This document shows positions 34,677-50,379 of a stretch of DNA of 64,000 nt, piece after piece. Under the pieces are notes generated by a model that saw nothing but the letters and a program-made list of their open reading frames with translations, was not told where the DNA came from and did not search any database. This DNA comes from Candidatus Multivorans sp. GTDB taxonomy: Bacteria; Acidobacteriota; Thermoanaerobaculia; Multivoradales; Multivoraceae. Position 1 is the first letter of the stretch; every line of letters begins with the position of its first letter. The position numbers and the translations under genes are program-made. The stretch covers positions 4,960,001 to 5,024,000 of the forward strand of contig OZ245033.1 in the NCBI GenBank assembly GCA_965224025.1. Direction: 5' to 3'.

Positions 34677-34680
34677 CGAT

Positions 34681-34710
34681 CGGCTGACCACGAAGTGGTC
34701 GCCGACCTTT
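34681..34710 (+). terminator. possible intrinsic terminator
   Basis: Hairpin CGGC-T-GACCAC-GAA-GTGGTC-GCCG then ACCTTT just after the stop; weak U-tail. Confidence 0.35.
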
Positions 34711-34738
34711 GGCCGGCGCGTGTTTCTGGCCGCCTTAG

Positions 34739-34788
34739 TCGGTTAGTGCGAGAAACCGTGCGAGTTGTGCGAGAGTTAGTGCGAGAAA
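34739..34788 (+). repeat. left-end transposase-binding-like repeats
   Basis: TTAGTGCGAGAAA at 34743-34755 and 34776-34788; partial GTGCGAG at 34758 and 34767. Confidence 0.8.
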
Positions 34789-34790
34789 GG

Positions 34791-34830
34791 GACGGGTAGA
34801 TGCGGGTGGATGCGGGTAAATGCGGGTGAG
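34791..34830 (+). repeat. 10-bp tandem repeat, about 4 units
   Basis: gacgggtaga tgcgggtgga tgcgggtaaa tgcgggtgag. Confidence 0.75.
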
Positions 34831-35065
34831 TGTGGCGCGGCTCGTGGCGGCGCTCAGCGACGCAGGAGTGGTGGACCCGGGACGGGTGGCGCAGGAGCTC
34901 GGACGACGGTGCGCCGGCATGCGCGTGCCAACCGAGGCGGCTGTGGAGCGCACCGTGACGGCGGCCGAGCGGTCAGAGCTGGCGCGATGCGTGGGGAGCG
35001 CCGAGGAGCTGGAGGACGCGGCGGGAATCAGTCGGCGCCACGCGAGGCGACTGAAAGGGGTCTAG
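34820..35065 (+). CDS. small Mor/C-like transcription activator (putative)
   Basis: 81 aa with C-terminal HTH-like SAEELEDAAGISRRHARRL; located at the end of a Mu-like element. Confidence 0.45.
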   Translation: MRVSVARLVAALSDAGVVDPGRVAQELGRRCAGMRVPTEAAVERTVTAAERSELARCVGSAEELEDAAGISRRHARRLKGV

Positions 35066-36077
35066 CGCTGATCGCCACTGCGCCGGCATCGAGCATGGCC
35101 GCGAGGCGGGGGTCCCAGTCCGGGTCCGCATCGAGCCGCTCGACGCAGCTCGGGTGTAGCGACTGAACGGCGGCGCCGGTGTGCGGCACAGGGCGACAGA
35201 ACGGCGGCCACACCCGATAGAGGCCGCCCCGCGAAACGCCGATCGGCGCCAGCGGGTCTGGGTCGGGATGGTCACCCTCTCGAGGGTGGACAGACAGGCC
35301 GGCCGCCGCGATGTGCTGCCACATCCAGTTCAGGGCAATGTCCGACAGCCCCCGCACGGCCCGGCCGCCGCCGACGTCGCTGTGCACGCCGGGAAACCAG
35401 ACCTGGTGCAGTTGCTGTCGCGCCCCCGGCGCGTTGCGCCAGAGTGTCGGACGGAACGGGCGACGGGCTTCGTCGATCGCGAGGGCGTGGCATGCGATCT
35501 CGACGTGGTCGCCCAAAGAGACGTCGTGGAAGCGGTGGCGTCCAGCAGACAGCCAGTCCAGCGGCTCGGGGACGCCCAGAGCTCCGACAGTGTCCCAGAC
35601 TCCGACAAATCGAATCGGGGCGTGCCGGCCGAGCAATTGTTCGGCGACCGCCATTCGCTGTTTGCCGGATCGATATACCGCCATCGCCTGCCGGGCGACT
35701 CGCCGAGAGTCGGCCGCTCGCTTCCTCGTCGCCCTGTCCCACTCGGGGACGGAGGGGATGCCGCACAGTCCGATCAGGCCGGCGAGGCTGCGGGCGGTAT
35801 AGGCGCCGCGGCTGTAGCCGAGAGCCCAGATCCTGTCGTCCGGATCCCAGACTTCAACAAGCCAGGCATACGCATCCTCGACGTTTTTTTGCAGCCCGAG
35901 GCCGAACGCGCCGCCGCGGAAACGGTCCCATCGACCCGTGCCGACGCCGGGGTCGTAGTACGTCTTGACGCCTTGCTTGACCGCATGCCAGGTGCGGCAG
36001 ACGTTCGTCGGCCGCACCGCGTCCGCCTCGTTCCAGGTCCCGTCGAACAGGAGCACCAAGTCTGACCCGTGCCTCAC
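35028..36077 (-). CDS. DUF2235 alpha/beta hydrolase (Tle1-like phospholipase domain)
   Basis: FDGTWN, TNV, YDPGVG, GYSRGAYTARSLAG, GVWDTV, HALAIDEAR, WFPGVHSDVGG; GTG 36077 overlaps the gemA stop. Confidence 0.9.
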   Translation of the reverse strand: MRHGSDLVLLFDGTWNEADAVRPTNVCRTWHAVKQGVKTYYDPGVGTGRWDRFRGGAFGLGLQKNVEDAYAWLVEVWDPDDRIWALGYSRGAYTARSLAGLIGLCGIPSVPEWDRATRKRAADSRRVARQAMAVYRSGKQRMAVAEQLLGRHAPIRFVGVWDTVGALGVPEPLDWLSAGRHRFHDVSLGDHVEIACHALAIDEARRPFRPTLWRNAPGARQQLHQVWFPGVHSDVGGGRAVRGLSDIALNWMWQHIAAAGLSVHPREGDHPDPDPLAPIGVSRGGLYRVWPPFCRPVPHTGAAVQSLHPSCVERLDADPDWDPRLAAMLDAGAVAISARPLSVASRGAD

Positions 36078-36481
36078 CGCCGCCCCTTCCAGGCACGCAA
36101 GCCTTCGATGACCCTGGTCGCCTCTGCGCTCGTGCGGACGCTTGTCAGCCGTTGGCTGCGCTCCAGCCACGTCGCGAGCGCCGCCTCGGTCAAACCAAGC
36201 TCGGCGCGCAGGTCGTCGATCAGGCGCCGCTGAGAAGCGGTTACCATACGGACGACGCCGGCCGGGAGTCGGGCCGGCGGCCGGCCCCTCGGCCGGCGCT
36301 TCGGCTTGGGCACGCCCAGGCGGCGCAGCAGTTCGCTGGCGTCGCGGATGTTCAGATCCGTGCAGCTCTTCGCGCCCCACCCCTCGTCGAGCATCCGTTC
36401 GTAGGTCTCCCTGTCGACGCCGGCGGCGCTCCTGGCGGTGTGGATGGCGCGAACCTGCGACGCCGTGATCGGGGCGGTCAT
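36074..36481 (-). CDS. gemA: Mu GemA/gp16-family regulatory protein
   Basis: AIHTARSAAGVDRETYERML...GAKSCTDL...ASQRRLIDDL...EATRVIEGLRAW. Confidence 0.75.
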   Translation of the reverse strand: MTAPITASQVRAIHTARSAAGVDRETYERMLDEGWGAKSCTDLNIRDASELLRRLGVPKPKRRPRGRPPARLPAGVVRMVTASQRRLIDDLRAELGLTEAALATWLERSQRLTSVRTSAEATRVIEGLRAWKGRR

Positions 36482-36482
36482 C

Positions 36483-36938
36483 TCACCCTTCCCGTGTTGC
36501 CTCGCTGTCGCCCGCCTCGCTCTCGTCAAGCGCGTCGAGCTTTGCCTGGTGTGCGACATCGATCCGGGTTACCGCTTCCTCGTAGGCGCCGCCGAGCGCC
36601 GCCTTGCCCGCGGTCCACCGCTCATTCCATTCGGAACGGACGCCGGCGATCGCTTTGCCGCGGTTTCGGTTCCACTGGTGGGTGAAGGCGAGCTCGTCTG
36701 CTCGGTACTTTGCCGCGGCGGCACTTCTCGCCTCGCCGCGCTCGCGTTCGAGGTCGCGGATGCGTCGTCGGCGGACCCATTCCCGGTCCTTTTTGGCCCG
36801 CTGCTCGAGGTAGGCGCGGTAGCGCTCGGCTTGACGTCGCCGGATGGCTTCGCGCTTGGCCTGGTAGTCCTTGGCGGCCTGGTAGCGCTCGTGGAAATCG
36901 GCCCGGATGCGGTCCGCGTCTTCGTGCGTGACCACCAC
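36483..36938 (-). CDS. charged helical phage protein, possibly 5'-truncated
   Basis: 151 aa Arg/Glu/Ala-rich ORF ending 1 nt before gemA; no clear RBS. Confidence 0.6.
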   Translation of the reverse strand: MVVTHEDADRIRADFHERYQAAKDYQAKREAIRRRQAERYRAYLEQRAKKDREWVRRRRIRDLERERGEARSAAAAKYRADELAFTHQWNRNRGKAIAGVRSEWNERWTAGKAALGGAYEEAVTRIDVAHQAKLDALDESEAGDSEATREG

Positions 36939-36939
36939 G

Positions 36940-37026
36940 GACGAGCAGCCCGTGCCGCTGATCGCGCCGGCGACTCCGACGCTGACGCGCGCCGGCCTGC
37001 GCGGCTTCCGCGGGGCGATCGGATGA
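36940..37026 (+). pseudogene. C-terminal remnant of a Mu gp36-like neck/adaptor gene
   Basis: DEQPVPLIAPATPTLTRAGLRGFRGAIG* ends in an ATGA overlap with the next gene but lacks its own start; resembles gp36 C-termini (recalled). Confidence 0.4.
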
Positions 37027-37505
37027 GCGAGGGCCGCATGTCCCTGGACGCCTGGCGCGAGCGTCTCGAGACGTTCCAGCCCCGGAGCCTCACGGTGGAC
37101 GGCGAGGCGCCGCCGCCGCTCGGCGAGGACGTGGACATCGACGCGACGACGGTCGACGAGGCCGCCCGCGCCGGCGCCCGCCGCGACGGCCTGTGGCTGG
37201 TCTGGTCTGCGGAGACCGGGCCGTCGAGCGACATCATCGGCAGGACGAGGCAGTTGCGCCGCGCCGAGGTGGTCGTGCTGTCCCGCGTGGCCGATCGCCG
37301 CGCCGGCGCGCCGTTCTCGGCCCAGGATGCCCTGGACCGGCTGCGGGCGCGAGTGGACGCCGCGCTGCTCGGCTGGATCCCTCCGGGCGCGATGACGCCC
37401 GTCGATTTCGTGCGCGGCGCAGCCCTGGCGCCGGGCAAGGACGGCGCCGCCTGGTGGGCCGACGCCTACGCCGCCGACCGCCTAGTTTCCGCGGACGGAG
37501 CATGA
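37023..37505 (+). CDS. phage tail terminator/completion protein
   Basis: 160 aa directly before the tail tube; ALDRLRARVDAALLGWIP...WWADAY. Confidence 0.65.
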   Translation: MSEGRMSLDAWRERLETFQPRSLTVDGEAPPPLGEDVDIDATTVDEAARAGARRDGLWLVWSAETGPSSDIIGRTRQLRRAEVVVLSRVADRRAGAPFSAQDALDRLRARVDAALLGWIPPGAMTPVDFVRGAALAPGKDGAAWWADAYAADRLVSADGA

Positions 37506-37518
37506 GGAGGAGGATGCG

Positions 37519-38529
37519 ATGACGTTGTTGGCGATGAAGAAGGTGTTGCTCTACAAGCCGGAGGCGGCCTACGGCGTGGCGCCCGCCGCCTTCACCGGCG
37601 CCGACGCGATCGAGGTGCACGAGCCGGATCTGACGGCGCTCGACGGCGGCACCGTGAGCCGGGAGCTGATGTGGCCGTATTTCGGGGCCAGCGACCCGGT
37701 CCAGGTCGACTCGCACGTGCGGCTGGCCTTCAGCGTGGAGCTGACGAGCGGGGGCGGCTTCACGCCCGCCACCGAGGCGATCTCGGCGCCGAAGTTCGGG
37801 GGCCTGCTCAAGGCGTGCGGGATGAAGGAGACGACCGGCAAGGCGGCCGTGGCCGACACCAACAACTCGAAAGTCGAGTACGCGCCGGAGACGAACGCCT
37901 CCGGCTCCTCGGTGACGCTGATCTGGAACATGGACGGCCAGCAGCACAGGCTGCTCGGCGCCCGCGGCACCTGGACGCTGGAGTTCGCCAGCAAGGAAAT
38001 CCCCCGGATCCGGTTCGAGTTCACGGGGCTATGGGCCTCGCCGAGCTCCATAACCCAGATCGACCCGGGGGGCTACGTCGGCTGGCAGGAGGCCGTCGCG
38101 GGCTCGAACGCGGCGTCCACGTTTTTGATCCACGGCACGCACGACCTGGCGCTCCACCGGCTGTCCGTCGCCCTCGGCGCGCAACCGGTGCACCGCGAGG
38201 TGGTGGGCGCCGACAACGACGTGCCGATCACCGGCCGCGAGACGACGGGCAGCGTGACGATGGACGCCGAGAAGCTGCTGGCCTGGAACCCGTTCCGCCT
38301 GGCGCAGAAGGCGACCAAGGACGCGCTGCAGCTCGCGCACGGCTTCACCGACTCGGCGAAGAGCATGCTCGCGGCCGGGAACCGCGGCAAGATCGTGGTG
38401 CTCGACGCCCCGCAGGTCGTGCTCTCCGAGCCGCGCTACGGCGACGACCAGGGCGTGGCCACGATCGAGGCGACGCTGACGATGGTGCCGGAAAGCGGCA
38501 ACGACGAAGTGAAGTTGACGTTCCAGTGA
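37519..38529 (+). CDS. major tail tube protein (non-contractile tail)
   Basis: KPEAAYG, PKFGGLLKACG, GARG, IRFEFTGL, ITGRETTG, GNDEVKLTF; RBS AGGAGGAGG. Confidence 0.8.
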   Translation: MTLLAMKKVLLYKPEAAYGVAPAAFTGADAIEVHEPDLTALDGGTVSRELMWPYFGASDPVQVDSHVRLAFSVELTSGGGFTPATEAISAPKFGGLLKACGMKETTGKAAVADTNNSKVEYAPETNASGSSVTLIWNMDGQQHRLLGARGTWTLEFASKEIPRIRFEFTGLWASPSSITQIDPGGYVGWQEAVAGSNAASTFLIHGTHDLALHRLSVALGAQPVHREVVGADNDVPITGRETTGSVTMDAEKLLAWNPFRLAQKATKDALQLAHGFTDSAKSMLAAGNRGKIVVLDAPQVVLSEPRYGDDQGVATIEATLTMVPESGNDEVKLTFQ

Positions 38530-38557
38530 GCGGACCCCCTGGTCGAGGAGGAATCGC

Positions 38558-38965
38558 ATGACGTTCAGGCTGGCCGACCCCGACGCCGTCTACGAGACGG
38601 CGGTCACGATCTCGGTGCCCGCTTCCGGCGGACCGGAGGAGCGGGAATTCACGGCGCACTTCCGGCTGCCGGCCCCCGCGGCCGTCCGGGCCGCGGCTCT
38701 CGAAGGCGACCCGCAGTTCATGCTCTGCGTCCTCGCCGGCTGGGACGGCATCGAGGGCCACGACGGCAAGCCGCTCGATTTCTCGCCCGCGAACGTCGAG
38801 AAGCTGGCCGGGATCGCCTACTTCGCGCGCGGCGTGGCCGCCGCTTTCGAGCGCTTCTCGCTCGGGCTGCCGGGAAAAACGCCCGCGCGGTCGGCCGGCG
38901 GTTCGTCGCTCGCCGCGGCCGCGACGACCGACAGGAAGACGCGCGGGCGTTCGGCATCGACGTAG
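38558..38965 (+). CDS. tail assembly chaperone (lambda gpG-like)
   Basis: VLAGWDGIEG..G.PLDFS..N; lies between tube and tape measure; contains slippery G GGA AAA. Confidence 0.8.
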   Translation: MTFRLADPDAVYETAVTISVPASGGPEEREFTAHFRLPAPAAVRAAALEGDPQFMLCVLAGWDGIEGHDGKPLDFSPANVEKLAGIAYFARGVAAAFERFSLGLPGKTPARSAGGSSLAAAATTDRKTRGRSAST

Positions 38966-39240
38966 GGGCTGTTGTCCGCGAGGAGCCGGCGTGCTGGGTG
39001 CTACCTTCGGCGTGGGACGCCGCGCGAGCGTTCTCGGCCTGCGCGACCCAGTGGCGGATCGGCCCTGCCGGCGGGCTGCTGGGCCTGGACTACGCGGGCG
39101 CCCGGGCCGCGGTGCGGGGCGTGACCGCGGACGGCCTGGGCAAGGAGGCGTCGGGCCGCTCGCTGCGCTGGCGGCGGGTATTCGAGCTGCTGCGCGAGAT
39201 GGAGGCCGCGGCGCTCGACGCGCAGCCGCGGTGGCGGTGA
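38558..39240 (+). CDS. gpGT-like -1 frameshift product with DUF1799-like C-terminus
   Basis: Heptamer GGGAAAA at 38872-38878; -1 frame open to 39240 with TQWR..G...GLDY...EMEAAAL. Confidence 0.75.
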
Positions 39241-39255
39241 CCGAGCCCGCCCGCC

Positions 39256-39372
39256 TCAGCGTTGCTGGTCGGCGGCGAACGAGAGGGCGGCGATGACGGC
39301 CCGGATCACCAGCGCGCAGGCGGTGCCGCCGATTACTGCCGCGTACAGCGTCATGATGACAAACCCCCACAT
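39256..39372 (-). CDS. 38-aa membrane peptide (moron-like)
   Basis: MWGFVIMTLYAAVIGGTACALVIRAVIAALSFAADQQR fills the chaperone-TMP gap; extended -10 TGCTAGGGT 6 nt before the ATG. Confidence 0.6.
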   Translation of the reverse strand: MWGFVIMTLYAAVIGGTACALVIRAVIAALSFAADQQR

Positions 39373-39388
39373 GGGGGAACCCTAGCAA

Positions 39389-41905
39389 ATGCCCGCTGAG
39401 TACCGCCTCGCGCTGCGCCTGACGGCCGACGCCAAGGGGTTCGTCGGCGCGGTGACCGCGGCGGACAAGCGAGTCGGCCGGCTCGCCGGGACGGTACGGC
39501 GGTCCAGCAGCGAGACAAAACAGGCGGCCGGCGCCCTGAAGCTGTACGGCGCCCAGGGCCAGGTGGTGTCGACGGTGTCGACGCGTCAGGCGGCCGCGGT
39601 CGACAGAGCGGCCCGGGCCGCCGACAGGGCAGGCAGGGCCTCCGCGGGAGCGGCGCGGCGCACCCGGGGCCTTGCTTCGGCGTTTCTCGCCGCGCATGGG
39701 CGGGCGATCGCCTACGGCCTGGGTCTGGGCGGCGGCCTGCTCGTGTCCCTTCGGCAGCTGGGGGGCGCGGCGCTGGACGCGGCGGAAGCGAACCGGGAGC
39801 TCGACAACCGCCTGCGCCTGGTGACGGAGTCGGAGGCTGAACTCGCGGCGGTGCGGTCCCAGCTCCTGGACGTCTCGGTGCGCACGCGGACGGCGATCGA
39901 CGGCACGGTGGTGACATACAGCCGGCTGGCGCTTGCGCTCGAACATCTCGACCGCCCCGCGTCACAGAGCGTCCGCGTGGTCGAGCTGCTGAACAAGCAG
40001 CTCGCGATCGGCGGCAGCGTGGGCAGCGAGGCGCAGGCCGGCCTGATTCAGTTTGCCCAGGGCCTGGCCTCGGGCAGGCTGCAGGGCGACGAGCTGAGGT
40101 CGGTGATGGAAAATCTTCTGGGCGTGCAGCAGGGGCTGATCATCGGCTTCCGGAAGCTCAGGGAATCGGGCCAGATCGACATCGACGTGACGAGGGCCAA
40201 TTTGCGTGAGTTGGCGTCCGAGGGCGAGATCACCGCCGAGCGGCTGATTGACGCGGTCCTGGCGTCGGGTGAGTGGACGGACAGGACGTACGAGAGCGTC
40301 GAAGCGGGCATCAGGTCGAGCTTCAGGGCCCTGCGCAACGAGATCCGGGAGAGCTTCCGCGAGGGGCTGGAGGAGACGTCGGGGTTCGTGGCCGCGACGG
40401 TGCAGCGGATGACGGAGGGTATGTCGCGGGCCAGGCGGATTCGGAGCCAGACGGTCAGGGTGTACGAGCTGGACTCGGATCCGCTGACGGCCCGTGACCT
40501 GATCGGCATGGACGAGCAGGAGATGCGCGACCTGGTTGGCGGCTTTGTGCGCGAGCTGGAGGCCGTGGCCGAGGGGGCCGGCGTGACCGCCGACTCCATC
40601 ATCGGCCGCCGGCTGGCCGCGCTGCTGCAGCCGCGGATCGACATTCTGCGGGAGGAACTGCAGCGCGCCGGCGAGATCGATCCGTCCGGCGCCGCGGCGC
40701 CGCCGGATCCGTCCGCGGAGCCGGATCCGGAACGCCTGCGCGAGATGTTGCGTCTCGAGCGCGAGTTCGCGACTGCGCGCGAACGGATTCAGCTCGACTA
40801 CCAGGACCGCGTGAGAAAGATCGAAGCGGTGGCGGATGGCGAGCAGCGCGAGCGATTGCTCCGGCGCGCGGAGACGATCCGGAGCGAGGGCATCGCCAGG
40901 CTGGGGAAAATCGCTGACCGCGAACGCGAGGCCCAGGAGCGCGCCGCGGCCGCGGACCGCGAACGCGCCGACTCGGCGCAGGCGTCGGCCGCCGCGCTCG
41001 TGCTGTTGCGCGAGGAGAACGAGCGGCTGCGGCAGGGAGGACTGGAAGCCCTGAAGGTGATCGAGGAGGAGCGCGAGGCCCGCGAACTGCTGGCGCAGGT
41101 CCGCCGGGCGCACGCGGACGCCACGCCGCAGGTGCTCGCCGGCCTGGAGGCCGAGGCGCTGGCGGAGCGGAAGCTGACGAAAGAGTTGGAGGCCCAGGCG
41201 GAGTCGCGAAACGCCAGGATGCAGGCGTTCGTGGGCTGGATGTCCGCCGGGTCGGCCGCGTCCGGTGAGGCCGCGGGCGAGCAGGCCGACCTGGCGGGAT
41301 CGCTCGGCGTGGCGGACGAGGCCCTGCGCCGAATCACGGGCGGCCTCGGGCAGTTCGCGAACGCGAACGCCAAGGCTTTCCGGCTGCACCAGGCCGCGGC
41401 GTTGGCGAGCGCGGCGGTTTCAACGGCCAAGGGCGCGACGGACGTCCTGGCAGACACGACGATCCAGCCGACGTGGCTGCGGCCGGTGATGATGGGCCTG
41501 ATCCTGGCCGCCGGCGCGGCGCAGATCGCGGCGATCCGTTCACAGAGGCCCCCCCAGGCGTTCGCCTACGGCGGCGTGATCGACCGCCGCGCGGAGTTCT
41601 CGTTCGGCGGCGGCCGCCGCGGCCTGGCGGGCGAGGCGGGCCCCGAGGCGATCCTTCCCCTGCGCCGGCTGCCGAGCGGCCGCCTGGGCGTCGGCGCCGC
41701 CGCCGGCGGCCGCGCGCCCGTCTTCGCGCCGCGCGTCGAGGTGGTCGTCCAGGCGCCGATGGGCGGCCGCCCGGACGACGCCGCCCTGTGGGGCCGCGAG
41801 GCGGGCCGCGGCGTGGCGACGGGCCTGCGCCCGCTGTTCCTCGAGTTCGTGCGCGAGGAGCGCCGCCCGCTGGGCGCGCTCGACCCGGACGGAGACTCCG
41901 TCTGA
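39389..41905 (+). CDS. tail tape measure protein
   Basis: 838 aa helical protein with tape-measure domain (NRLRLVT, QFAQGLASGRLQGDELRSVMEN) and C-terminal FAYGG...GEAGPEAILPL. Confidence 0.93.
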   Translation: MPAEYRLALRLTADAKGFVGAVTAADKRVGRLAGTVRRSSSETKQAAGALKLYGAQGQVVSTVSTRQAAAVDRAARAADRAGRASAGAARRTRGLASAFLAAHGRAIAYGLGLGGGLLVSLRQLGGAALDAAEANRELDNRLRLVTESEAELAAVRSQLLDVSVRTRTAIDGTVVTYSRLALALEHLDRPASQSVRVVELLNKQLAIGGSVGSEAQAGLIQFAQGLASGRLQGDELRSVMENLLGVQQGLIIGFRKLRESGQIDIDVTRANLRELASEGEITAERLIDAVLASGEWTDRTYESVEAGIRSSFRALRNEIRESFREGLEETSGFVAATVQRMTEGMSRARRIRSQTVRVYELDSDPLTARDLIGMDEQEMRDLVGGFVRELEAVAEGAGVTADSIIGRRLAALLQPRIDILREELQRAGEIDPSGAAAPPDPSAEPDPERLREMLRLEREFATARERIQLDYQDRVRKIEAVADGEQRERLLRRAETIRSEGIARLGKIADREREAQERAAAADRERADSAQASAAALVLLREENERLRQGGLEALKVIEEEREARELLAQVRRAHADATPQVLAGLEAEALAERKLTKELEAQAESRNARMQAFVGWMSAGSAASGEAAGEQADLAGSLGVADEALRRITGGLGQFANANAKAFRLHQAAALASAAVSTAKGATDVLADTTIQPTWLRPVMMGLILAAGAAQIAAIRSQRPPQAFAYGGVIDRRAEFSFGGGRRGLAGEAGPEAILPLRRLPSGRLGVGAAAGGRAPVFAPRVEVVVQAPMGGRPDDAALWGREAGRGVATGLRPLFLEFVREERRPLGALDPDGDSV

Positions 41906-42249
41906 TGGCCACGCCGTCGCTGCCCACCGCGCCGCTGTCCGTCGGCTCGTCGGTCCAGGTCGAGCCGCTCGTGGACCGCCTGCGCCTGGGCGACGGCCAC
42001 GTCCAGGACGCCGCCCAGGGCGTGAACGCCCTGGCGCGCTCGTGGCGGGCGGTGTGGAAGGCGCTCGACCAGGCGGCGCACGACACCCTGGTGGACTTCT
42101 TCGCCGCCCGCGCCGGCCACGAGCGGTTCCTGTGGCAGTCGCCGCTGGACAGCGCGCAGCGCAAGTGGGTCTGCGTCTCGTGGTCGACGGAGATCGTCAG
42201 CAGCGGCGTGTACAACGTCCAGGCGACGCTGGAGCGGCGATATGCCTGA
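41905..42249 (+). CDS. minor tail protein M-like
   Basis: 114 aa, RLGDGHVQ...GVN...FFAARAGHERFLWQSP...WVCVSW. Confidence 0.85.
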   Translation: MATPSLPTAPLSVGSSVQVEPLVDRLRLGDGHVQDAAQGVNALARSWRAVWKALDQAAHDTLVDFFAARAGHERFLWQSPLDSAQRKWVCVSWSTEIVSSGVYNVQATLERRYA

Positions 42250-42952
42250 TCTCGCCACCCGCCTCGACCTCGACGCCGGCGCGGTGGTCGACCTGTTCGA
42301 GATCCAGACCGACGCGAACGCGATCCTGTTCCGGTTCTCGCCCGGTCCGCGGGCCGACGGCACGGCGATCCTCTTCGGCGGCGAGCGCTACGACCCCGTG
42401 CCGATCGCCGTGTCCGGGCTCGGCTTCGGCGGCGGCGCGCGCTCGAGCGGCGGCTCTCCCCGGCTCACCCTGGGCCGGCTCGACCCGGTGATCACCGGCG
42501 ATCCGCGCGGCGACGACTGGCTGGGCTACCGCCTGCGCTGGCGACAGACACTGGCCCGGCATCTCGACGGAGCGGCCGACGCGGACAGCGCGGCGTACCA
42601 CGAGGAGATGCTGTGGATTGGCCGGGAGCGCTCCCGGACCCGCGCCGAGGTCGAGTTCGAACTCACCACGCCGCTCGAGCTGGTCCACCTGCACCTGCCC
42701 CGGCGGCAGGTGCTCCGCGAGTACTGCCCCTGGCGGTACCGCCTCTGGACCGGCGCGTCGTGGGACTACGCGAAGGCGCAGTGCCCGTACCGGGGCGCGG
42801 CGCGGTTCGACGTCTCGGACAATCCGACGTCGGACAGCAGCCAGGACAACTGCAGCGGCACGCCTGCCGGCTGCCGGCTGCGTTTCCCGGATCCGGCGGC
42901 GCTGCCCTTCGGTGGTTTCCTGGGCGTCGGCGGCGCCGCGAGGCCGCGGTGA
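42242..42952 (+). CDS. minor tail protein L-like
   Basis: VDLFEI, RQTLARHLD, FEL..PLE...LPRRQV, CPWRY, four Cys, LPFGGF. Confidence 0.88.
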   Translation: MPDLATRLDLDAGAVVDLFEIQTDANAILFRFSPGPRADGTAILFGGERYDPVPIAVSGLGFGGGARSSGGSPRLTLGRLDPVITGDPRGDDWLGYRLRWRQTLARHLDGAADADSAAYHEEMLWIGRERSRTRAEVEFELTTPLELVHLHLPRRQVLREYCPWRYRLWTGASWDYAKAQCPYRGAARFDVSDNPTSDSSQDNCSGTPAGCRLRFPDPAALPFGGFLGVGGAARPR

Positions 42953-43779
42953 GCCACCTGGTGCCGGCGGCCGCCGACAGCGAGGCGCGGCGGTACTTCG
43001 AGGCGGCCTGGCCCGACGAAGCTGCGGGCTACGTGGCAGCCGGCGGCGGCTTCCGGCCGCTCTCCGCGTTGACCTCCGGAGGCGGCCACGTGGAGCACGT
43101 CTGGCCGCCCCGGGACGAAGCGGCGGTCGTCCTGCATTCGCATCCCGGAGGCGAGCGGTTCCCGTCCAAGGCCGACATGACGGCGCAGGTGGCGATGGGC
43201 CTGCCGTGCGGCGTCGTGCCGGTGGTCGGCCCGGAGCTCGCCGAGGAAGCCCTGGGCGGCGCCGATCCCGGCAGCCGGCCGCCGATCGATCTCGCGGCCG
43301 CGTACGCGGCGCGCCGCGCCGGCTCTCCGCGCGCCGGTGGCCCGTCGCTGTTCGCCCAGGGGCCGGCGGCGGCGAAGCTGCCGGCCGCGAGTCCGCCCTG
43401 GCAGGGCCGCCCGTGGCTGCACGGAGTCTCCGACTGCTGGACGCTGGCCGGCCACTGGCTGCGCGCGCAAGGCTTCGACGTGCCGCCCATGGCCTACGGC
43501 TGGGGCTGGCAGCGGCGCGGGAAGGACCTGTTCCTGGCCGGCCTGGCGGAGGCCGGCTGGGGGGTGCTGGCGCGCGGCACGGAGCGACCCGGGGATCTGC
43601 TGCTCATGCGGCTGCGCGCGCCCGTCGTGGAGCACTGCGCGGTGCTGCTGGAGGGCGGCCGCATCCTGCACCACCCGGGCTCCCCGGCGCCGGACGCCCC
43701 GTGCGCGCTGTCCCGGCGTGAGCCGCTGGGGCGGTGGGGCCGCCACGTGGCACTGGCGGTGAGGCCGCGGCCGGCATGA
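42949..43779 (+). CDS. tail assembly protein K-like (JAB/Mov34 + NlpC/P60)
   Basis: WPDEAAG, HSHP..PSKAD, GVSDCWTL, PGDLLL, EHCAV, ILHH. Confidence 0.88.
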   Translation: MSHLVPAAADSEARRYFEAAWPDEAAGYVAAGGGFRPLSALTSGGGHVEHVWPPRDEAAVVLHSHPGGERFPSKADMTAQVAMGLPCGVVPVVGPELAEEALGGADPGSRPPIDLAAAYAARRAGSPRAGGPSLFAQGPAAAKLPAASPPWQGRPWLHGVSDCWTLAGHWLRAQGFDVPPMAYGWGWQRRGKDLFLAGLAEAGWGVLARGTERPGDLLLMRLRAPVVEHCAVLLEGGRILHHPGSPAPDAPCALSRREPLGRWGRHVALAVRPRPA

Positions 43780-46700
43780 TCGTCCGTGTCCAGGGCGCGC
43801 CCGAACTCCGGGAGCTGCTGGGCGCAGACGAGGTCGACGTCGGGGAGGCGCCGTCCGCCGGCGCCGGTCTGCGGGCGCTGTTCGAGGTGCCCGGCGCCGA
43901 GGACCTGGTGCGCGCCGGGGCCTGGTCGGTCCGCGTCGACGGCCTGGAGGTCCAGGAGGCCGCCCTCGGCGCTGCCCTGGCCCGCCCGGCGCGGTCGCTC
44001 GAGCTGCGCGCGGCGCCGACCGCGAGGTTCGAGGGTCCGGCGGCGGTGGCGCCGTGGGTGTACTGGACGATCGTCGGCGCGACCCTGGCCGCGACCGCCT
44101 ACTCCATCGCCACGCTGCCCTCGGTCCGCGACTACGCGGACCGGGAGGAGCCCGGCAACCGGCAGCGGCACCTGTTCAGTGGGCCGGTGAACTCGGTCGA
44201 ACAGGGCGGCCCCGTGCCGCTCGTCTTCGGCACGCGGGTCCGGGTGGGGTCGGTGGTCGTCTCGGCCTCGACGTCGTCCGACCTGGACGAGACGGGCGGC
44301 GGCGGCGACGGCGGCATCATTCAGCTTCCGCAGCCGAGTCGGCAGATCGGGGGTGGCGCCGGCCGGCCGGAGACGCACTCCGTGTTCGGCGCCGTGCTCT
44401 CGACCGTGCGCACCGAGGAGCCACCCGACCCCGGCCCCCAGGGTCCGGACTTGCCGGATCCGGACGACGACGACACCGGTACGGATCCCCCGGGCCCCGG
44501 CGACCGGCAGCCGGGCGACCCGCCGACTCCGGACCGCTACGCGCCGGCGAAGCTGGACGGCGTGAGCCGGGTCCGGATCGTGGAGATGCTGGGCGAGGGG
44601 AAGATCGAGGGCTTGCGCGACCCGGGCGTGGTGCTGACCAGGTCGCTGATCCTGAGCGGCGCCGCGGCCGCCGGCGAGGCGGTGCTGAAGGTGTTCGGAT
44701 CGCCTGATGACGATCTGTACGACCTGGATGTCTCCGCGGACGACGACGGAGACGTCCTGGAGACAGCGGCGTGCGCCGGCTGCAAGGTCCGCATCGACCG
44801 AGGGGCCGCGTGGCTTGCCGGCGCGGTCCAATCGGTCACTGCGGCGGGGAAGATCCGGTTCCTCAGGGAGGGCGGCGCCGGCGCGCTCACCGCGGGCGCC
44901 GGAGCGGCGATCTCGTTCCCGGATGAGGAGAATCGCCTGGCCAGCGTGTTCCTGGACGGCACGCCCCTGAGGACGGCGGCGGGCCAATACAATTTCAGCG
45001 GCGTGGTCGACCTGGAGTTGCTGCGCGGCGGCGCTGGCCAGACGGGCCTGGACACGATCGACGCAGTCGAGACGCAGCAGCAGGTCGACGTCGCGCTGGG
45101 AACGGCCGCGACGTCGCGGAACAGGGCCGGCCAGGCAGACGCGGTCCGGGTGACGCTCCGCGCCGCCGCGCTGTGGCGCGAGCTCGACGGGGACATCGCG
45201 CCGGCGCGGGTCCTGGTCGAGATCACGATCGGTTCGAAGACCTGGGGCTACCGACTGCAGGAGAAGCGCACGTCGCCCGGCGAGGTGAGCGTGGTGCTGC
45301 CGCTGGGGTCGGAGACCAGCGTCAAGGTGCGGCGGACCACCGTTCCGGCGGCGGACCCGGACACGGTGCGCGACGAGGTGCGCTGGGCGTCGGTCACCTG
45401 GATCAGGCATGTGCGCCAGACCTACCAGTCGTCGGCCCTCGTGGGCCTGACGCTGGACGCGGACCGGATGGGCGGCCGGTTGCCGGCGCGGAGCTATGAG
45501 ATCGCCGGCCTGGAAGTGGGAATTCCGTCCGGCTGGAATCGGCGCACCCGAGCCTATCCGCCGGTCTGGAGCCGGACCATGGCGGCGGACCCGGCCGCGG
45601 TCGACAATCCGGCCTGGATCCTTTTCGGGCTGCTGCGCAACGTCGATTGGGGCATCGGCGCCGAGCCGGGCATGCGCGCGGCGGCGTGGGCGGCGCGGGA
45701 CGCGTTCTACGAGTTCGGCCGGTGGTGCGACCAGAGCGTGGCGCTCGGCGCCGAGTCGGCGATGGAGCCGCGCTGGCGCTTCAACGCGGCGTTCAGCCGC
45801 CGGATGAAGGCCAGGCGGTTGCTGAAGCTGATCGAGAGCGCCTGCCGGTGCGGGATCGAGTTCCAGGGCGGCCAGCTGAGCCTGTACTGGGACGCCGACG
45901 CGGACCCGGCGGCCATGCTCGGCGACGCGAACGTGCAGGACGGCGAGTTCGAGTACGGGTCGCGGGCGCCGGAGTGGCACGAGCGGGCGTCGGTGGTCGC
46001 GGTCACGTTCAACGATCCGGACGACGGGTTCCGGGCCTCGGTGGAGCTGGTGATCTCCCGGAACCTGATCGAGAAGTACGGCTGGCGCCAGCGCGACGTG
46101 ACGGCGATGGGCTGCACCTCCCGCGGCCAGGCGCACCGGATAGGCCGGCTGCTGCTCTACGAGCAGGAGCACGAGGCGGAGACGTTCTCCTGCACCGCCA
46201 CGTGGGACAACGCCCTTGTGCGCCCCGGCCAGGTCGTCCAGGTCGCGGACTCCGACGTCACGACGTCGCGGACGACGCGGCGCGTGGTGGAGGCTGCAGC
46301 CGTCGACGGCCGGCTCGTGCTCGATCAGGCCGTGAGCGCCGCCGACGCGGCGCTTATCCGGTCCCTGTGGGTGCGTCGCCTCGAGGGCGAGGCGTCCGGG
46401 GATGCCAGGGGCCGCAAGGCCGGCCTCGCGCAGTACCGCACGGCTGACGGCTACCGGTTTGGCGCCGGGGGGGCGACGTGGGGGCTGAGCGTCTCGCGGG
46501 CGGGCGGCACGGCTGTGCCGCTGCGCAAGGTGCAGGGCGTCGTCCAGATCGAGCTGGCGACGGCCGGCCGCAAGCCCCTGCTGTACCGCGTGACGGAGGT
46601 GCGGCGCGTCGACACGATCCGCTACCGGATCTCGGGCCACCGCCACCAGCCCGGCAAGTACGGCGTGGTGGAGAGCCGGCGCGCCCTGGGGTCTCCGGAG

Positions 46701-49415
46701 AAACGAATTTCCACGGGGCTCAAGCCGCTGAAGGCAGTCACCCTGCGCGAGGAGGACTACGAGGACGGCGCGCTCGGGACGCTGGCCAAGGTGGTCGTCG
46801 GGGTCGAGTCGGCGGAGGCCGATCCGCGGCAGAGGGCGCTCGACATCCAGATCCGGTACGCGCCGACCTCGGCGGCGGCTGTCGCGGACACTCCGTGGAG
46901 ACGCCTGCGGACCCGCGAGGTCGCGCCTTCGAGGGTGGGCTGGTATCAGGCCCGCGGGCGGTGGGTCGGCGGCGGCACGCGCTCCGGGTGGCGCGAGTCG
47001 GCCGTTCTGCATGCCGACGGCCCTGGCGACGTGCTGGGCGGCGACCCCACGGTGCCGCAGTGGGCGATGGTGATCGACCGCACCGTCAGGGCGCCGACCG
47101 CGGCGGCCGTGGACCTGGCGACGGAGTGGCACCTGTCCGGCGCCGCGGGCGGCTGGGGCGGCTCGCGCACGGTGATCATCGGCGGGGTGTCGTCGACTGA
47201 GGAGGCGCGACTGAAACGGCTCGCTCCGGGCAGCCTGCTGGCGCTGTTCGACGACCTGGACAACTGGCTCCAGGCGGCGGCGCCGGCGGCGCCTGCGTTC
47301 AGCGGCGCAGGCGCGGCCCGGAACGCGGCGATCGCGCTCGAGCACGTGCGGAGCAAGGGCGCCCAGCCGTCGGCCGGGCCGCTGTCGGTGCGTTTCTTTC
47401 CGTCAGGCCTCGACGGCCCGGACCTGGCGACCATCGCGTCGTTTACGCTGAGCCCCGCGGACCCGGGGATGGTCCTGGGGTGGGCCGCCGTTGCGACGAA
47501 GCCGGACTTGTGGAAGATCCAGCTGGGGCTGCCCGCGCCCGGCGGCGGCGTCAACTACGCAGGGCAGCCATCCTACGTGGACGGTGCCAAAACCCGGCTG
47601 GCCAGCGGGGATCCGGTGGTCTCGGGAGCCGCGCCGCCGACATCGGCGTTTCTGGCCGCGATCTATTCCGGCTCGCAGCTCGACAAGAGGCTCTACGCCC
47701 GGATCCAGGGCGTGAGGAGGGATGGGGCGGCCGTCGTCGGCTACGGCGCGGACGTGGCCTCCGCGGTGATCGAGATCAGCACGCTGTCCGCCCCCTCGCT
47801 CGTCGCGACGCCGGGGAACGCCCTGATCGTCCTGACCTGGAGCCCGGTGCCGGGCGCGACCGGCTACGAAATTTTCCGCAACACCACCGGAACGCAGCCA
47901 GACCCGAGCACGAGTCCGACCTGGTCGACAGGAGATGTGGCACGGTGGGTCAACACGGGCCTGGCGAACGGAACAAGGTACTACTACTGGATCCGCGCAA
48001 CGACGTCCGCCGCCGCGAGCTCGCTGTCCCCGCGCGCGTCTGCAGTTCCGACCGCCGGCACGGCGGTGATCGCGCCGCACTTCCCCTCGTCCTCGGTGGC
48101 TGTGGCGATCACCCGGGGCGCCGTGGGGAGTCAGGTCCTGCCGGCGGCTTCCGGATCGGCGCCGGCGTACGCCCTGCCGGGGTTGCCGTCCTGGCTCTCG
48201 TTCAGCGCCAGCACCAGGCGGCTGTCGTGGACCGCGTCGGCGGTCGTCGGCACGCGGACGCTGACGCTCACGGCGACGAACGCGGCCGGGGCGGACACGC
48301 TGGCCGTCAACGTGACGGTCGGGCTGTCCGCCCCCTCGCTCGACGCGACGCCGGGGAACGCCCTGATCGTCCTGACCTGGAGCCCGGTGCCGGGCGCGAC
48401 CGGCTACCAAATTTTCCGCAACACCACCGGAACGCAGCCAGACCCGAGCACGAGTCGGAGCTGGCGGGCAGGAGCTACGGTGCAGTGGGTCAACACGGGC
48501 CTGGCGAACGGAACAAGGTACTACTACTGGGTCCGCGCAACGGCGGGCGGCTCCGCGAGCTCGCTGTCCCCGCGCGCGTCTGCAGTTCCGACCGCCGGCA
48601 CGGCGGTGATCGCGCCGCACTTCCCCTCGTCCTCGGTGGCTGTGGCGATCACCCGGGGCGCCGCGGGGAGTCAGGTCCTGCCGGCGGCTTCCGGATCGGC
48701 GCCGGCGTACGCCCTGCCGGGGTTGCCGTCCTGGCTCTCGTTCAGCGCCAGCAGGCGGCTGTCGTGGACCGCGTCGGCGGTCGTCGGCACGTGGCCGCTG
48801 ACGCTCACGGCGACGAACGCGGCCGGGGCGGACACGCTGGCCGTCAACGTGACGGTCGCCGGCGTCGGCGCATGGACGGCGTGGCAATCGGCCGCAAATC
48901 TTGCCTGGAGCGCGGACCTGGACGACGCCGACGTTTCGTCGCAGGCCGCCGAGACCGACAACCGCATGTGGAGGTGGGACACATCGGGGGGGGGGCTGGC
49001 TGACTGGTCGGGGGGCGGGCTGTGGGCCGGTGCGTCCACGTTCGGGGTGATGGCCACGATGAACGCCGTGATCGACGGGGCTGTGGTCCTGGTGCAGGTG
49101 TTTCAGTGCTACGGCACCCCGGCCAACAACGTGCGCCGTACCGACACCGACGTGTATCTGAACAGCGAGTTCACGCCGCTTTTGTTCGCCGGCGATCTCG
49201 ACACGCGAAGGTCGGAGAGCTTCGATTTCACGCAGGCAGTGCTTATCTACTCCGCCTCGAACAGGCCTTCCGGGCTGAGCTCGACAGATCGCGCTATCGG
49301 GTTTCTGCGCTGGCGCCGGGACCTCGGCGGCAATGGCGCCGGGACCCAGGAGCTTGCGGTCGTCCCCGGCGGCTTCGGGTCGTACCGGTTCTACAGTCGG
49401 AGGTGGGAGCTGTGA
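43776..49415 (+). CDS. fused tail protein I + host-specificity protein J with duplicated FN3/Ig-like modules
   Basis: I-like LFSGPVNSVEQGGPVPLVFG; J-like GEGKIEG, SVFLDGTP, DNPAW, GCTSRGQAHRIGR, PGQVVQVAD; FN3 (LTWSPVPGATGY..TGLANGTRYYYWIRA) and LPSWLSF Ig-like modules, each twice. Confidence 0.9.
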   Translation: MIVRVQGAPELRELLGADEVDVGEAPSAGAGLRALFEVPGAEDLVRAGAWSVRVDGLEVQEAALGAALARPARSLELRAAPTARFEGPAAVAPWVYWTIVGATLAATAYSIATLPSVRDYADREEPGNRQRHLFSGPVNSVEQGGPVPLVFGTRVRVGSVVVSASTSSDLDETGGGGDGGIIQLPQPSRQIGGGAGRPETHSVFGAVLSTVRTEEPPDPGPQGPDLPDPDDDDTGTDPPGPGDRQPGDPPTPDRYAPAKLDGVSRVRIVEMLGEGKIEGLRDPGVVLTRSLILSGAAAAGEAVLKVFGSPDDDLYDLDVSADDDGDVLETAACAGCKVRIDRGAAWLAGAVQSVTAAGKIRFLREGGAGALTAGAGAAISFPDEENRLASVFLDGTPLRTAAGQYNFSGVVDLELLRGGAGQTGLDTIDAVETQQQVDVALGTAATSRNRAGQADAVRVTLRAAALWRELDGDIAPARVLVEITIGSKTWGYRLQEKRTSPGEVSVVLPLGSETSVKVRRTTVPAADPDTVRDEVRWASVTWIRHVRQTYQSSALVGLTLDADRMGGRLPARSYEIAGLEVGIPSGWNRRTRAYPPVWSRTMAADPAAVDNPAWILFGLLRNVDWGIGAEPGMRAAAWAARDAFYEFGRWCDQSVALGAESAMEPRWRFNAAFSRRMKARRLLKLIESACRCGIEFQGGQLSLYWDADADPAAMLGDANVQDGEFEYGSRAPEWHERASVVAVTFNDPDDGFRASVELVISRNLIEKYGWRQRDVTAMGCTSRGQAHRIGRLLLYEQEHEAETFSCTATWDNALVRPGQVVQVADSDVTTSRTTRRVVEAAAVDGRLVLDQAVSAADAALIRSLWVRRLEGEASGDARGRKAGLAQYRTADGYRFGAGGATWGLSVSRAGGTAVPLRKVQGVVQIELATAGRKPLLYRVTEVRRVDTIRYRISGHRHQPGKYGVVESRRALGSPEKRISTGLKPLKAVTLREEDYEDGALGTLAKVVVGVESAEADPRQRALDIQIRYAPTSAAAVADTPWRRLRTREVAPSRVGWYQARGRWVGGGTRSGWRESAVLHADGPGDVLGGDPTVPQWAMVIDRTVRAPTAAAVDLATEWHLSGAAGGWGGSRTVIIGGVSSTEEARLKRLAPGSLLALFDDLDNWLQAAAPAAPAFSGAGAARNAAIALEHVRSKGAQPSAGPLSVRFFPSGLDGPDLATIASFTLSPADPGMVLGWAAVATKPDLWKIQLGLPAPGGGVNYAGQPSYVDGAKTRLASGDPVVSGAAPPTSAFLAAIYSGSQLDKRLYARIQGVRRDGAAVVGYGADVASAVIEISTLSAPSLVATPGNALIVLTWSPVPGATGYEIFRNTTGTQPDPSTSPTWSTGDVARWVNTGLANGTRYYYWIRATTSAAASSLSPRASAVPTAGTAVIAPHFPSSSVAVAITRGAVGSQVLPAASGSAPAYALPGLPSWLSFSASTRRLSWTASAVVGTRTLTLTATNAAGADTLAVNVTVGLSAPSLDATPGNALIVLTWSPVPGATGYQIFRNTTGTQPDPSTSRSWRAGATVQWVNTGLANGTRYYYWVRATAGGSASSLSPRASAVPTAGTAVIAPHFPSSSVAVAITRGAAGSQVLPAASGSAPAYALPGLPSWLSFSASRRLSWTASAVVGTWPLTLTATNAAGADTLAVNVTVAGVGAWTAWQSAANLAWSADLDDADVSSQAAETDNRMWRWDTSGGGLADWSGGGLWAGASTFGVMATMNAVIDGAVVLVQVFQCYGTPANNVRRTDTDVYLNSEFTPLLFAGDLDTRRSESFDFTQAVLIYSASNRPSGLSSTDRAIGFLRWRRDLGGNGAGTQELAVVPGGFGSYRFYSRRWEL
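47783..48858 (+). repeat. 540-bp tandem duplication in the tail-tip gene
   Basis: Copy 1 47783-48321, copy 2 48323-48858; 22 substitutions and one 3-nt indel by manual alignment. Confidence 0.95.
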
Positions 49416-49921
49416 GGTTTCTGGTCAACGGCCCGACGCGGCTGGCCTACCGCGCCTGCGAGTCGCGCGACTTCGACTCGCTGCACGAGATGATGCGCGG
49501 CACCCGTACCTGGGCGGCGCTGCATGCCGCCGTGGCCGCTCAACTCGACGCCGACGACGGCGACGACTACCGGGCGCTGGCGGCGGGATCGCGGGTCTTG
49601 ATCGCCACGGACGGCGGCGCCGTCGTCGGCATGGTCCGGGCCGTTCTTTCCTCCGGCGAGCGCTGGACGGCGAACGTGGAATCTCGCGGCGCCTCGGGCC
49701 AGGGCGAGCGCCCGCTCGAGTTCGCCGGTGACGCCTTGGCGTGGCTGCACCTGCTCGGCGTGGAGGCGGCCGAGGTCACGGCCTACTGCCGGGCGTGCCC
49801 GAGCCCGTTCCACGACGGCCTGGTGCCGCCCCGGAGGGTGTCCTGGTCGGCCGACCCGATCCCGCGCGACCCGCTGGGCTTGCCACGCGACCTGACCTGG
49901 GCCAGGGTGCAGACCGGCTAG
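49412..49921 (+). CDS. hypothetical protein, possibly GNAT-like fold
   Basis: GTGA overlap with the J stop; 169 aa; YRACESRDFDSL...VLIATDGGAVVGMV resembles a GNAT N-terminal half. Confidence 0.55.
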   Translation: MRFLVNGPTRLAYRACESRDFDSLHEMMRGTRTWAALHAAVAAQLDADDGDDYRALAAGSRVLIATDGGAVVGMVRAVLSSGERWTANVESRGASGQGERPLEFAGDALAWLHLLGVEAAEVTAYCRACPSPFHDGLVPPRRVSWSADPIPRDPLGLPRDLTWARVQTG

Positions 49922-50027
49922 CTGTCGTCCTCCACCGCAGTGGGTCTCGCGACCTTCGACCTCGAACCGCGACTCACGCCGTTCCCGCTGGCAGCCGGGG
50001 AATCGCCCGCAGGCCGACTGCACAGCG

Positions 50028-50089
50028 TTTCTCGCACTAATGCACAGTCGTTTCTCGCACTAATGGGGTCCATTTCTCGCACGAACCGA
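50028..50089 (-). repeat. right-end transposase-binding-like repeats
   Basis: TTTCTCGCACTAA at 50028 and 50051 and TTTCTCGCACGAA at 50073 (22-23 bp period); inverted relative to the left-end repeats. Confidence 0.85.
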
Positions 50090-50102
50090 GTCTTCGGCGG
50101 CA

Positions 50103-50120
50103 GCGGACCAGAAGGTCCGC
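50103..50120. repeat. REP-like hairpin
   Basis: GCGGACC-AGAA-GGTCCGC perfect 7-bp stem just outside the element. Confidence 0.4.
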
Positions 50121-50379
50121 GCACCCAGAGACGGGCTGTGCCGTGAGCGGGCCTCTGTTCTGCAACCGTTGGAGCGACACTGCGAGCGGTGGGTTCGCAG
50201 TAGAGACTCTCGCTCCGGGAAAGGCCGTGCACTGGGTGCGCGGACCTGCCATCCGTGCACCCGATGACGGGCGCACGGACTGGTTCGCGGGTGGCGCGGA
50301 TCGCGCCACCCGGGTTCTGGTCCGCATCCGGGCGACGCCGCGAAGCGGCGAGCTATACAGCATCGCGCAGAATAGACCC

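Follow-up and report, generated by a model that had tools for sequence, protein, structure and literature searches.

A probable natural mini-Mu-like element carrying a complete phage tail operon, present in two identical copies in an acidobacterial genome

The 64,000-nucleotide stretch of the Candidatus Multivorans sp. genome analysed here (the window, C1:4960001-5024000 of the host genome, G000) contains an element, designated E, in which a complete phage tail operon is enclosed by inverted repeat arrays (Table 1; positions without a contig name are window positions). E extends over positions 34737-50091 (15,355 bp), has the termini 5'-AGTCGG...CCGAGT-3' and is bounded by inverted arrays of TT[A/C]GTGCGAGAAA. 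With up to two mismatches allowed, the sequence TTAGTGCGAGAAA is matched five times in the window, at 34743 and 34776 on the plus strand and at 50028, 50051 and 50073 on the minus strand, against 0.25 matches expected by shuffling, and none of 100 shuffles reached five. Across G000, the end motif is confined to the four ends of the two copies of E described below. The inverted end arrays around ~15.35 kb that an initial annotation of the sequence had proposed are thus borne out, with the limits corrected to those given here.

The right 13 kb of E consist of a single plus-strand tail operon of the lambda/RcapMu type. Four of its gene junctions overlap (tape measure protein (TMP)/M, M/L, L/K and J/169-amino-acid (aa) gene), the terminator/tube and tube/G gaps measure 13 and 28 nt and both carry a GGAGG-type ribosome-binding site, and the conserved G/GT slippery site, G GGA AAA at 38872-38878, is in the correct phase, with the -1 frame open to 39240 and a GC content at third codon positions of 0.81, which bears out the tight packing, the stop/start coupling and the G/GT pair described initially. 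All the tail proteins align with their relatives nearly end to end. The I-J fusion has an I-like N-terminus (phrog_32 at residues 133-182), and within it an FN3 plus He_PIG module is tandemly duplicated (540 bp; 47783-48321 and 48323-48858, 95% identical). Homologues of the downstream 169-aa gene likewise follow J in three of the related elements introduced below (G044, 38%; element C, 33%; and G053). Pfam and PHROGs searches of the open reading frames (ORFs) of E recovered no transposase A, ATPase B, repressor, terminase, portal, capsid or lysis family, in agreement with the initial annotation, and the same ORFs include no integrase, own replication module, helper-interference or packaging genes and no recognised head-tail adaptor genes. 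Gam, present in the related elements of G007 and G052, is absent from E. Between GT and the TMP gene lies a 38-aa hydrophobic ORF in antisense, an uncertain gene; element C contains a 64-aa hydrophobic ORF in a matching position and orientation.

In the left 2.2 kb, the 151-aa ORFan, GemA and DUF2235 genes form a coupled minus-strand operon directed toward the L end and divergent from the tail operon, with the GTG start of the DUF2235 gene at 36077 overlapping the GemA stop codon (GTGA). The presence of DUF2235 and GemA, noted initially, is confirmed by PF09994 and PF06252, but the co-orientation with the tail genes then implied for them is not, both lying on the minus strand in the divergent operon. 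The DUF2235 protein has homologues in the related elements A, B, G044, G053 and G052. Nearly all elements of this phage group carry a DUF2235/Tle1-like gene, which may act as a lysis aid, as virion cargo or in defence; its position varies, some elements having it beside the L end, others between the portal and MuF genes and others upstream of A. For the 151-aa ORFan, no Pfam or PHROGs family was found, the gene is present in none of the 41 other genomes of the genus, and a comparison with 1.84 billion representatives returned itself and coiled-coil repeat hits only; its protein-language-model neighbours (Atlas) were uninformative.

The 81-aa gene next to the L end, called Mor-like in the initial annotation, matches no Pfam or PHROGs family, and BLASTP against Mor and C of Mu gave no match, which leaves it as a candidate suggested by protein-language-model neighbours only. 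These neighbours are small viral proteins, including several clusters in which PF08765 (Mor) occurs in 13-97% of the members, and the Mor-bearing clusters score 0.86-0.92 (Atlas). The gene has a GC content by codon position of 0.80/0.57/0.83, and a homologue (40% over 78 aa) adjoins the L end of the G052 element. The CGGGTnnATG repeats, which are in helical phase and lie between the L-end binding sites and the 81-aa gene, may represent a protein-binding array. Scans for sigma-70 promoters and terminators yielded nothing above shuffles.

Table 1. Features of element E and of its borders, in window positions.
Feature	Position	Strand	Evidence
Left copy of the target duplication, CTT	34734..34736	.	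Junction and single CTT in uninterrupted REP-like paralogues
L end: terminus 5'-AGTCGG and two TTAGTGCGAGAAA sites (34743, 34776)	34737..34790	+	Architecture as at related prophage ends
Four tandem 10-bp repeats CGGGTnnATG, just inside the L end	34793..34832	+	Repeat scan, family D1
81-aa gene with C-terminal helix-turn-helix (HTH)-like stretch; candidate Mor/C-type activator	34820..35065	+	Language-model lead only
DUF2235 / Tle1-like alpha-beta hydrolase	35028..36077	-	PF09994, E 9.7e-69
GemA homologue, probable start 36481	36074..36559	-	PF06252, E 9.1e-11; phrog_286, E 1.5e-17
151-aa ORFan, first gene of the leftward operon	36483..36938	-	GC by codon position 0.74/0.50/0.80
84-bp divergent intergenic region (the '36940 junction')	36939..37022	.	
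Tail terminator	37023..37505	+	PF23840, E 1e-10
Tail tube protein	37519..38529	+	PF18906, E 7.2e-13; phrog_290, E 4.1e-22
Tail assembly chaperones G (38558-38965) and GT (-1 shift)	38558..39240	+	phrog_569/313, frame analysis
38-aa hydrophobic ORF, antisense between GT and TMP, uncertain gene	39256..39372	-	
Tape measure protein (TMP)	39389..41905	+	PF20155, E 2.7e-34; phrog_339, E 1.7e-45
Minor tail protein M	41905..42249	+	PF05939, E 3.5e-20; phrog_14
Minor tail protein L	42242..42952	+	PF05100, E 2.6e-32; phrog_18, E 6.9e-49
Tail protein K (JAB/MPN and NlpC/P60)	42949..43779	+	PF14464, PF00877; phrog_30, E 1.9e-33
I-J fusion / central tail fibre, 1,893 aa	43734..49415	+	phrog_31, E 1.6e-112; PF13550, He_PIG, fn3
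169-aa conserved gene downstream of J	49412..49921	+	No Pfam/PHROGs family
R end: three binding-site repeats, terminus ...CCGAGT-3'	50028..50091	-	
Right copy of the target duplication, CTT	50092..50094	.	

A BLAST search against the whole genome revealed a second copy of E, 100% identical, inverted and located 35.3 kb from the first. Window 34736-47819 corresponds to C1:13084-1 and window 47822-50092 to C1:5047675-5045405, with the identity stopping at the end arrays, and copy 2 thus spans both ends of contig C1. Copy 1 is inserted in a REP-like repeat, uninterrupted paralogues of which read GGCCGC-CTT-CGGCGGC, and is flanked by CTT on both sides. Copy 2 splits the transposase gene of an IS110-family element (PF01548, PF02371; C1:5044233-5045405 and C1:13084-13650); the intact IS110 at C1:2020642-2022374, which is 99-100% identical to both halves, reads GGTCGTGC-ATG-TCCAAGG, and copy 2 is flanked by ATG on both sides. 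The target-site duplication is 3 bp at both copies of E, rather than the 5 bp made by Mu or the 6 bp made by B3 (given in the accessible part of PMC8705779). No pairing of the E flanks fits a 5-bp duplication, and the flank pattern expected of replicative inversion was not found. Instead of att repeats, E has transposon ends and a 3-bp duplication at its borders. Because the split IS110 is still 99-100% identical to its sister copy, the insertion of copy 2 is recent, and because there are two identical copies, each with its own 3-bp duplication, it was the headless form itself that transposed. E moved in its reduced form, either twice or once from one site to the other. The matched duplications at both copies fit a simple insertion as well as a replicative inversion and a subsequent flip between the inverted copies, two routes that they do not distinguish. 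The same two observations uphold the initial proposal of a mobile, tail-only unit that lacks a transposase and descends from a transposable siphophage.

Relatives in the genus carry the empty site, not the full prophage at this position that the initial annotation had thought might argue against such a unit. The host genes flanking copy 1 are adjacent in these genomes, separated by a gap of 22 bp in G054 and 40 bp in G055; the gap is similar in many of the 41 genus genomes, and none has a prophage at the site. The flanking genes in the window encode adenylosuccinate synthetase (31308-32660) and a phosphodiesterase-family protein (32805-34676) on the left and a DUF4910/M28-like protein (50143-51774) on the right. 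The sole tRNA gene (Lys, 31165-31240) is not at a border of E, and the GC content of the E region is 0.69-0.79 versus mostly 0.63-0.72 in the remaining window. The REP-like family to which the flanking sequence belongs (34701-34735 and 50093-50330) has ~100 BLAST matches across the genome and also occurs in relatives; the insertion point of copy 1 coincides with the loop of a REP-like GCCGCC...GGCGGC palindrome. The IS110 element, ~1.7 kb long, is present in at least 10 copies at 96-100% identity and is found in G052 and G056 as well, at 95-96%.

To place E among phages, we compared it with related elements in the genus. The tube profile found relatives in 10 of the 41 other genus genomes and in none of 15 genomes from 12 other genera of the family. 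The prophage of G007 (49.8 kb), a relative of which is carried by G009, has both ends, with the termini TGTTGAG and the duplication CTC. In these two prophages, a leftward arm running to the L end encodes Gam, A (phrog_310, E 4.6e-23), B (AAA_22), GemA, an M15 endolysin, the terminase, a Mu-type portal and MuF, and a rightward arm running to the R end encodes a Mu-type protease I, the capsid protein (phrog_1005), terminator, tube and TMP and continues through J. The divergent layout of E is thus the lineage's own two-arm layout with most genes gone. The ends of the lineage consist of a 7-8-nt terminus followed by [G/T]GCGAGAAAC sites ~23 nt apart, and the end architecture of E matches that of the ends in G007, G009, G017, G008, G044, G053 and G052. 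The 3-bp duplication is seen also in G007, and elements A and C are compatible with it. The A protein of G007 shares only 25% identity with 'transposase A' proteins of Stenotrophomonas phages, and the nearest cultured phages by the E tube (RcapMu, RcWaterboi, RC1, RS1, vB_ThpS-P1 and S-CBS1) are 30-35% identical. E is itself a mosaic, its GemA being nearest to that of G052 (66% identity) and its tail 40-47% identical to other types. From the L end, the order is 81-aa gene, GemA, B, A and DUF2235 in G052 and 81-aa gene, DUF2235, GemA and ORFan in E.

A source of transposition proteins was sought in the host genome. The Pfam MuA models (PF02914, PF09299), which matched nothing in the genome, are uninformative here and also miss the lineage's own A in G007 and G009; they were replaced by tblastn with 12 G007 phage proteins and by the phrog_310 profile. 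For A, B, Gam, protease, capsid, M15 endolysin, the 139-aa protein and the 198-aa repressor-region protein of G007, tblastn gave no match in G000. GemA matched in the two E copies only, portal and MuF matched in elements A and B, and the terminase was represented by a C-terminal fragment only (in B). The phrog_310 profile, which recovered the phage-type A in G007, G009 and G017, hit in G000 multicopy IS-like ORFs only (335 aa in eight copies, 471 aa in nine copies and a few others). Candidate donors of A and B were found only in sister species (G007, G009, G044, G052 and G053). Mobilisation in trans is suggested because no homologue of a Mu-type transposase or of ATPase B was found in G000. 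Of the initial idea of a mini-Mu moved by a helper transposase, movement in trans therefore agrees with two copies that lack their own A and B, but the helper prophage was not found in the genome by tblastn or phrog_310.

E seems to be rare. Pattern scans of genome and metagenome contig collections revealed no close relatives of the E tube, and the tube profile found four loci in viral contigs, at 34-44% identity. The tube, TMP and L proteins of E are singleton clusters at 90% identity, and the collection contains neither GemA nor the 151-aa protein as an exact sequence. Neither the 41 other genus genomes, searched with the 151-aa gene, nor the contig scans with the tube revealed an E-type element. 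The same headless layout at other sites, which the initial annotation had suggested looking for, thus exists as the second identical copy in G000, but no E-type element was found in the other genomes searched.

The genus commonly carries reduced derivatives of such phages, among them some in clear decay and one type that is conserved between species. In G000, a second element family, with ends different from those of E, comprises three members. Element A (C1:2261898-2268490, 6.6 kb) has both ends, one of only ~76 bp, and encodes a portal, a 366-aa protein, DUF2235, MuF and a Mu G-like protein. Element B (C1:2918217-about 2925000) has one end, the genes of element A and a terminase fragment, and then breaks off. 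Element C (C1:2368580-2383336, 14.8 kb) is tail-only and end-bounded (AGTAGAG... / TGTAGAGG...), with genes for a Mu G-like protein and a truncated MuF fragment that are divergent from a terminator-through-J module and a 227-aa gene; between the tubes of C and E the identity is 41-42%. Because its J gene is split by a frameshift, and MuF is truncated, element C is considered to be decaying. A and C share 581 bp at one end with 98.8% identity and hence look like complementary derivatives of one parent. The homologue of the element C site on contig C2 is not a clean empty site. Contig C2 (76.7 kb; C2:30053-44542 versus C1:2360001-2390000) is ~91% identical to the chromosomal stretch, without element C, and may be the haplotype of a second strain rather than a plasmid, which fits the 5.66% contamination of the assembly. 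Outside G000, the A/B-bearing Mu-type element of G052 is present in three copies (C2:2048850-contig end, C2 start and C3 start), without a detectable terminase and most of the portal; it looks like a phage turned into a large transposon. The element in G056 is a remnant.

The conserved type comprises headless elements with both ends in G044 (C10:1149670-1185035, 35.4 kb) and G053 (C1:3993850-4023390, 29.5 kb), which have different flanking genes, and kin of the G044 type on partial contigs (G017:C115 and G008:C365), with shared modules 80-96% identical among the four. On one side, G044-type elements encode DUF2235, an M15 endolysin, B, A and a repressor-region protein; on the divergent side, two FN3 proteins stand where head genes would be, along with a complete set of tail genes and with secreted cargo. 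Genes for terminase, portal, MuF, protease and capsid were not found in these elements, and in the host genomes, with G007 as the positive control, Portal_Mu was detected in 0 of 4 and the phrog_1005 capsid in 0 of 3. Pairwise ratios of nonsynonymous to synonymous substitution rates (dN/dS) among G044-type elements are 0.07-0.16 for the tube, 0.06-0.12 for G, 0.18-0.37 for TMP, 0.20 for A, 0.22 for B and 0.30 for the endolysin.

Taken together, we consider E to be, with good probability, a natural mini-Mu-like element, non-autonomous and derived from a lineage of transposable siphophages in this acidobacterial genus. It keeps two predicted transposase-binding end arrays, which are required in cis, as well as the leftward operon, the HTH-like gene and the complete tail module, and the A and B proteins of a related element would act in trans, carrying out strand transfer on the ends of E as for laboratory mini-Mu. 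The helper may no longer be, or may never have been stably, in the genome: possible sources are a co-resident prophage since lost, an infection that aborted or a variant strain missing from the consensus. The intact tail operon could build a non-contractile tail if transcribed. We lean, by a modest measure, toward regarding this operon as hitch-hiking cargo that has not yet decayed, as E lacks genes for lysis or release, occurs in this genome only and belongs to a genus in which decay is rife. For a function speak the selective loss of head and early genes, the intact 13 kb of coupled tail genes, and the retention of GemA and of a possible late activator. Several points weigh against the view of E as a mini-Mu-like derivative moved in trans. 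Mobilisation in trans is deduced from the missing cognate transposase and was not observed. E is not a one-step deletion of any full-length relative seen, because the gene order of its left arm differs from that of G052. No clean 3-bp duplication is present at the elements of G044 (GAA/GAG) and G053 (GAG/CAA), and 2 bp of copy 2 (47820-21) are absent at the contig join, at the start of the 540-bp J repeat, which could be an assembly trim or a real frameshift. Finally, the loss of all head and early genes from an element with 13 kb of coupled tail genes intact is not what random decay predicts, and the parallels provided by element C and by the G044 type (tail dN/dS 0.06-0.37) speak for selection of headlessness, for which the cargo explanation does not account.

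That the pair of copies is an assembly artefact or a plain segmental duplication, with no transposition, is scarcely credible, although copy 2 lies across the ends of contig C1 with those 2 bp absent at a join within the 540-bp tandem repeat, and although the assembly has 5.66% contamination and an extra contig 91% identical to the chromosome. The identity ends exactly at the inverted end arrays, the 3-bp duplications are distinct for each copy and were checked against uninterrupted paralogous targets, and the flanks of the two copies differ, consisting of unique or IS sequence. Moreover, two sequencing runs of one public sample that is probably the source of the genome (X1 and X2; likely the same data, but assembled separately) were available. 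A 7,981-bp contig from X1 spans window 33800-41695 with no differences and bridges both the left junction and the '36940 junction', at which the misassembly envisaged in the initial annotation is thereby rejected. Contigs from X2 end at 34735 and 50092, the pattern that a repeat joined to two different flanks should give, and their depth is 74.7 and 66.5 on E versus 43.2 and 35.4 on the flank contigs, which is weak evidence, depth not being equal to copy number. The recent deletion of a prophage, the other simple explanation put forward initially, holds in part, but more than one deletion or rearrangement would be needed from any full-length relative seen.

Two further explanations concern the role of the tail genes within such a transposon. 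E and its larger headless kin could be transposon-borne F-type tailocins, kept for producing headless tail particles against competitors, with Mu-type replicative transposition amplifying or spreading the tail genes. This is consistent with the complete tail set without head genes, the intact ORFs, the gene coupling and the G/GT site of E, with a second tail-only element of the same design and only ~41% identity in the same genome, with the elements of G044 (35.4 kb) and G053 (29.5 kb), which keep A, B, an M15 endolysin and the tail without head genes, and with the low dN/dS among G044-type elements (tube 0.07-0.16, G 0.06-0.12), a signal that could nonetheless date from whole-phage times. We regard it as unlikely, given that E has neither endolysin nor holin, that no homologue of the lineage's M15 endolysin exists in the genome, that element C is decaying (frameshifted J, truncated MuF fragment) and that defective derivatives are common in the genus (A, B, G056 and G052), where headlessness may equal decay. 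Less probable still is that E is a satellite, mobilised and packaged by a helper and providing the helper's capsids with alternative tails and host range, in a mirror image of those phage-inducible chromosomal islands (PICIs) that form capsids. Both ends are kept and movement would be in trans, GemA and a possible Mor-type activator are retained beside the late (tail) operon, the genus contains full-length phages whose ends share this architecture, and Mu-type headful packaging can carry a short mini-Mu plus host DNA. However, the genome yielded no helper, head-tail adaptor and interference genes were not recognised, and a spreading satellite should not be so rare that no E-type element appears in the other genomes and metagenomes searched. 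A role of the tail operon other than cargo, tailocin or alternative tails seems very unlikely.

Among known phages, Pseudomonas D3112 and B3 are transposable siphophages. Members of this kind such as RcapMu, RcWaterboi, RC1 and RS1 share with E GemA, repeated transposase-binding sites at the ends and a tube protein 30-35% identical, but their genomes measure 36-40 kb compared with 15.4 kb for E, which lacks A/B, repressor, lysis and head genes. The lineage of E further differs from them in its two divergent arms, with early, terminase and portal genes directed leftward to the L end, and the termini of E are AG.../...GT rather than TG...CA. Laboratory mini-Mu and mini-D3112 likewise retain both ends, have lost the transposition functions and need A and B in trans (according to the accessible part of PMC8705779); E differs from laboratory mini-Mu in being natural, in having a whole tail operon as cargo and in being present in two copies without a resident helper. 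As far as the available portions of the descriptions go, F-type tailocins (pyocin F and monocin) resemble E in having a headless gene set for a non-contractile lambda-like tail, but E lacks a lysis cassette and a recognised regulator, has transposon ends as its borders and was duplicated by transposition. Within the same bounds, capsid-forming PICIs are similar in that they carry a partial virion module and E, too, would depend on another phage for the missing half, but they possess an integrase, att sites, their own replication and packaging, and capsids, none of which E has; E would provide at most tails and move by DDE-type transposition. In its accessible part, PMC12724379 gives no genomic evidence of tailocins. 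In the literature, taken without supplements, we found neither a transposon-bounded tail-only element or transposable tailocin nor transposable siphoviruses with a 3-bp target-site duplication. E thus belongs to a known kind, the defective or miniature transposable phage; new are the natural, duplicated mini-element with an intact tail operon and, for the lineage, the divergent arms, the 3-bp duplication and the headless A/B-bearing relatives.

E may be viewed as a natural counterpart of laboratory mini-Mu, indicating that reduced transposable phages can persist and multiply as non-autonomous transposons, and it reveals an acidobacterial lineage of Mu-like siphophages with an unusual two-arm layout and a 3-bp duplication. 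With two identical 15-kb copies in inverted orientation 35 kb from each other, the chromosome also offers a substrate for inversion. It is conceivable, though doubtful, that E, element C and the G044 type constitute an undescribed class of Mu-type transposons with a working headless tail machine as cargo. If so, induction would cause the autonomous members (with A, B, endolysin and tail) to amplify by replicative transposition, to produce particles resembling F-type tailocins and to lyse the cell, and E would be a non-autonomous member, switched on and copied by the early proteins of a relative and adding a second tail specificity. Should G044-type elements make particles, tailocins would have a mobile, self-amplifying form.

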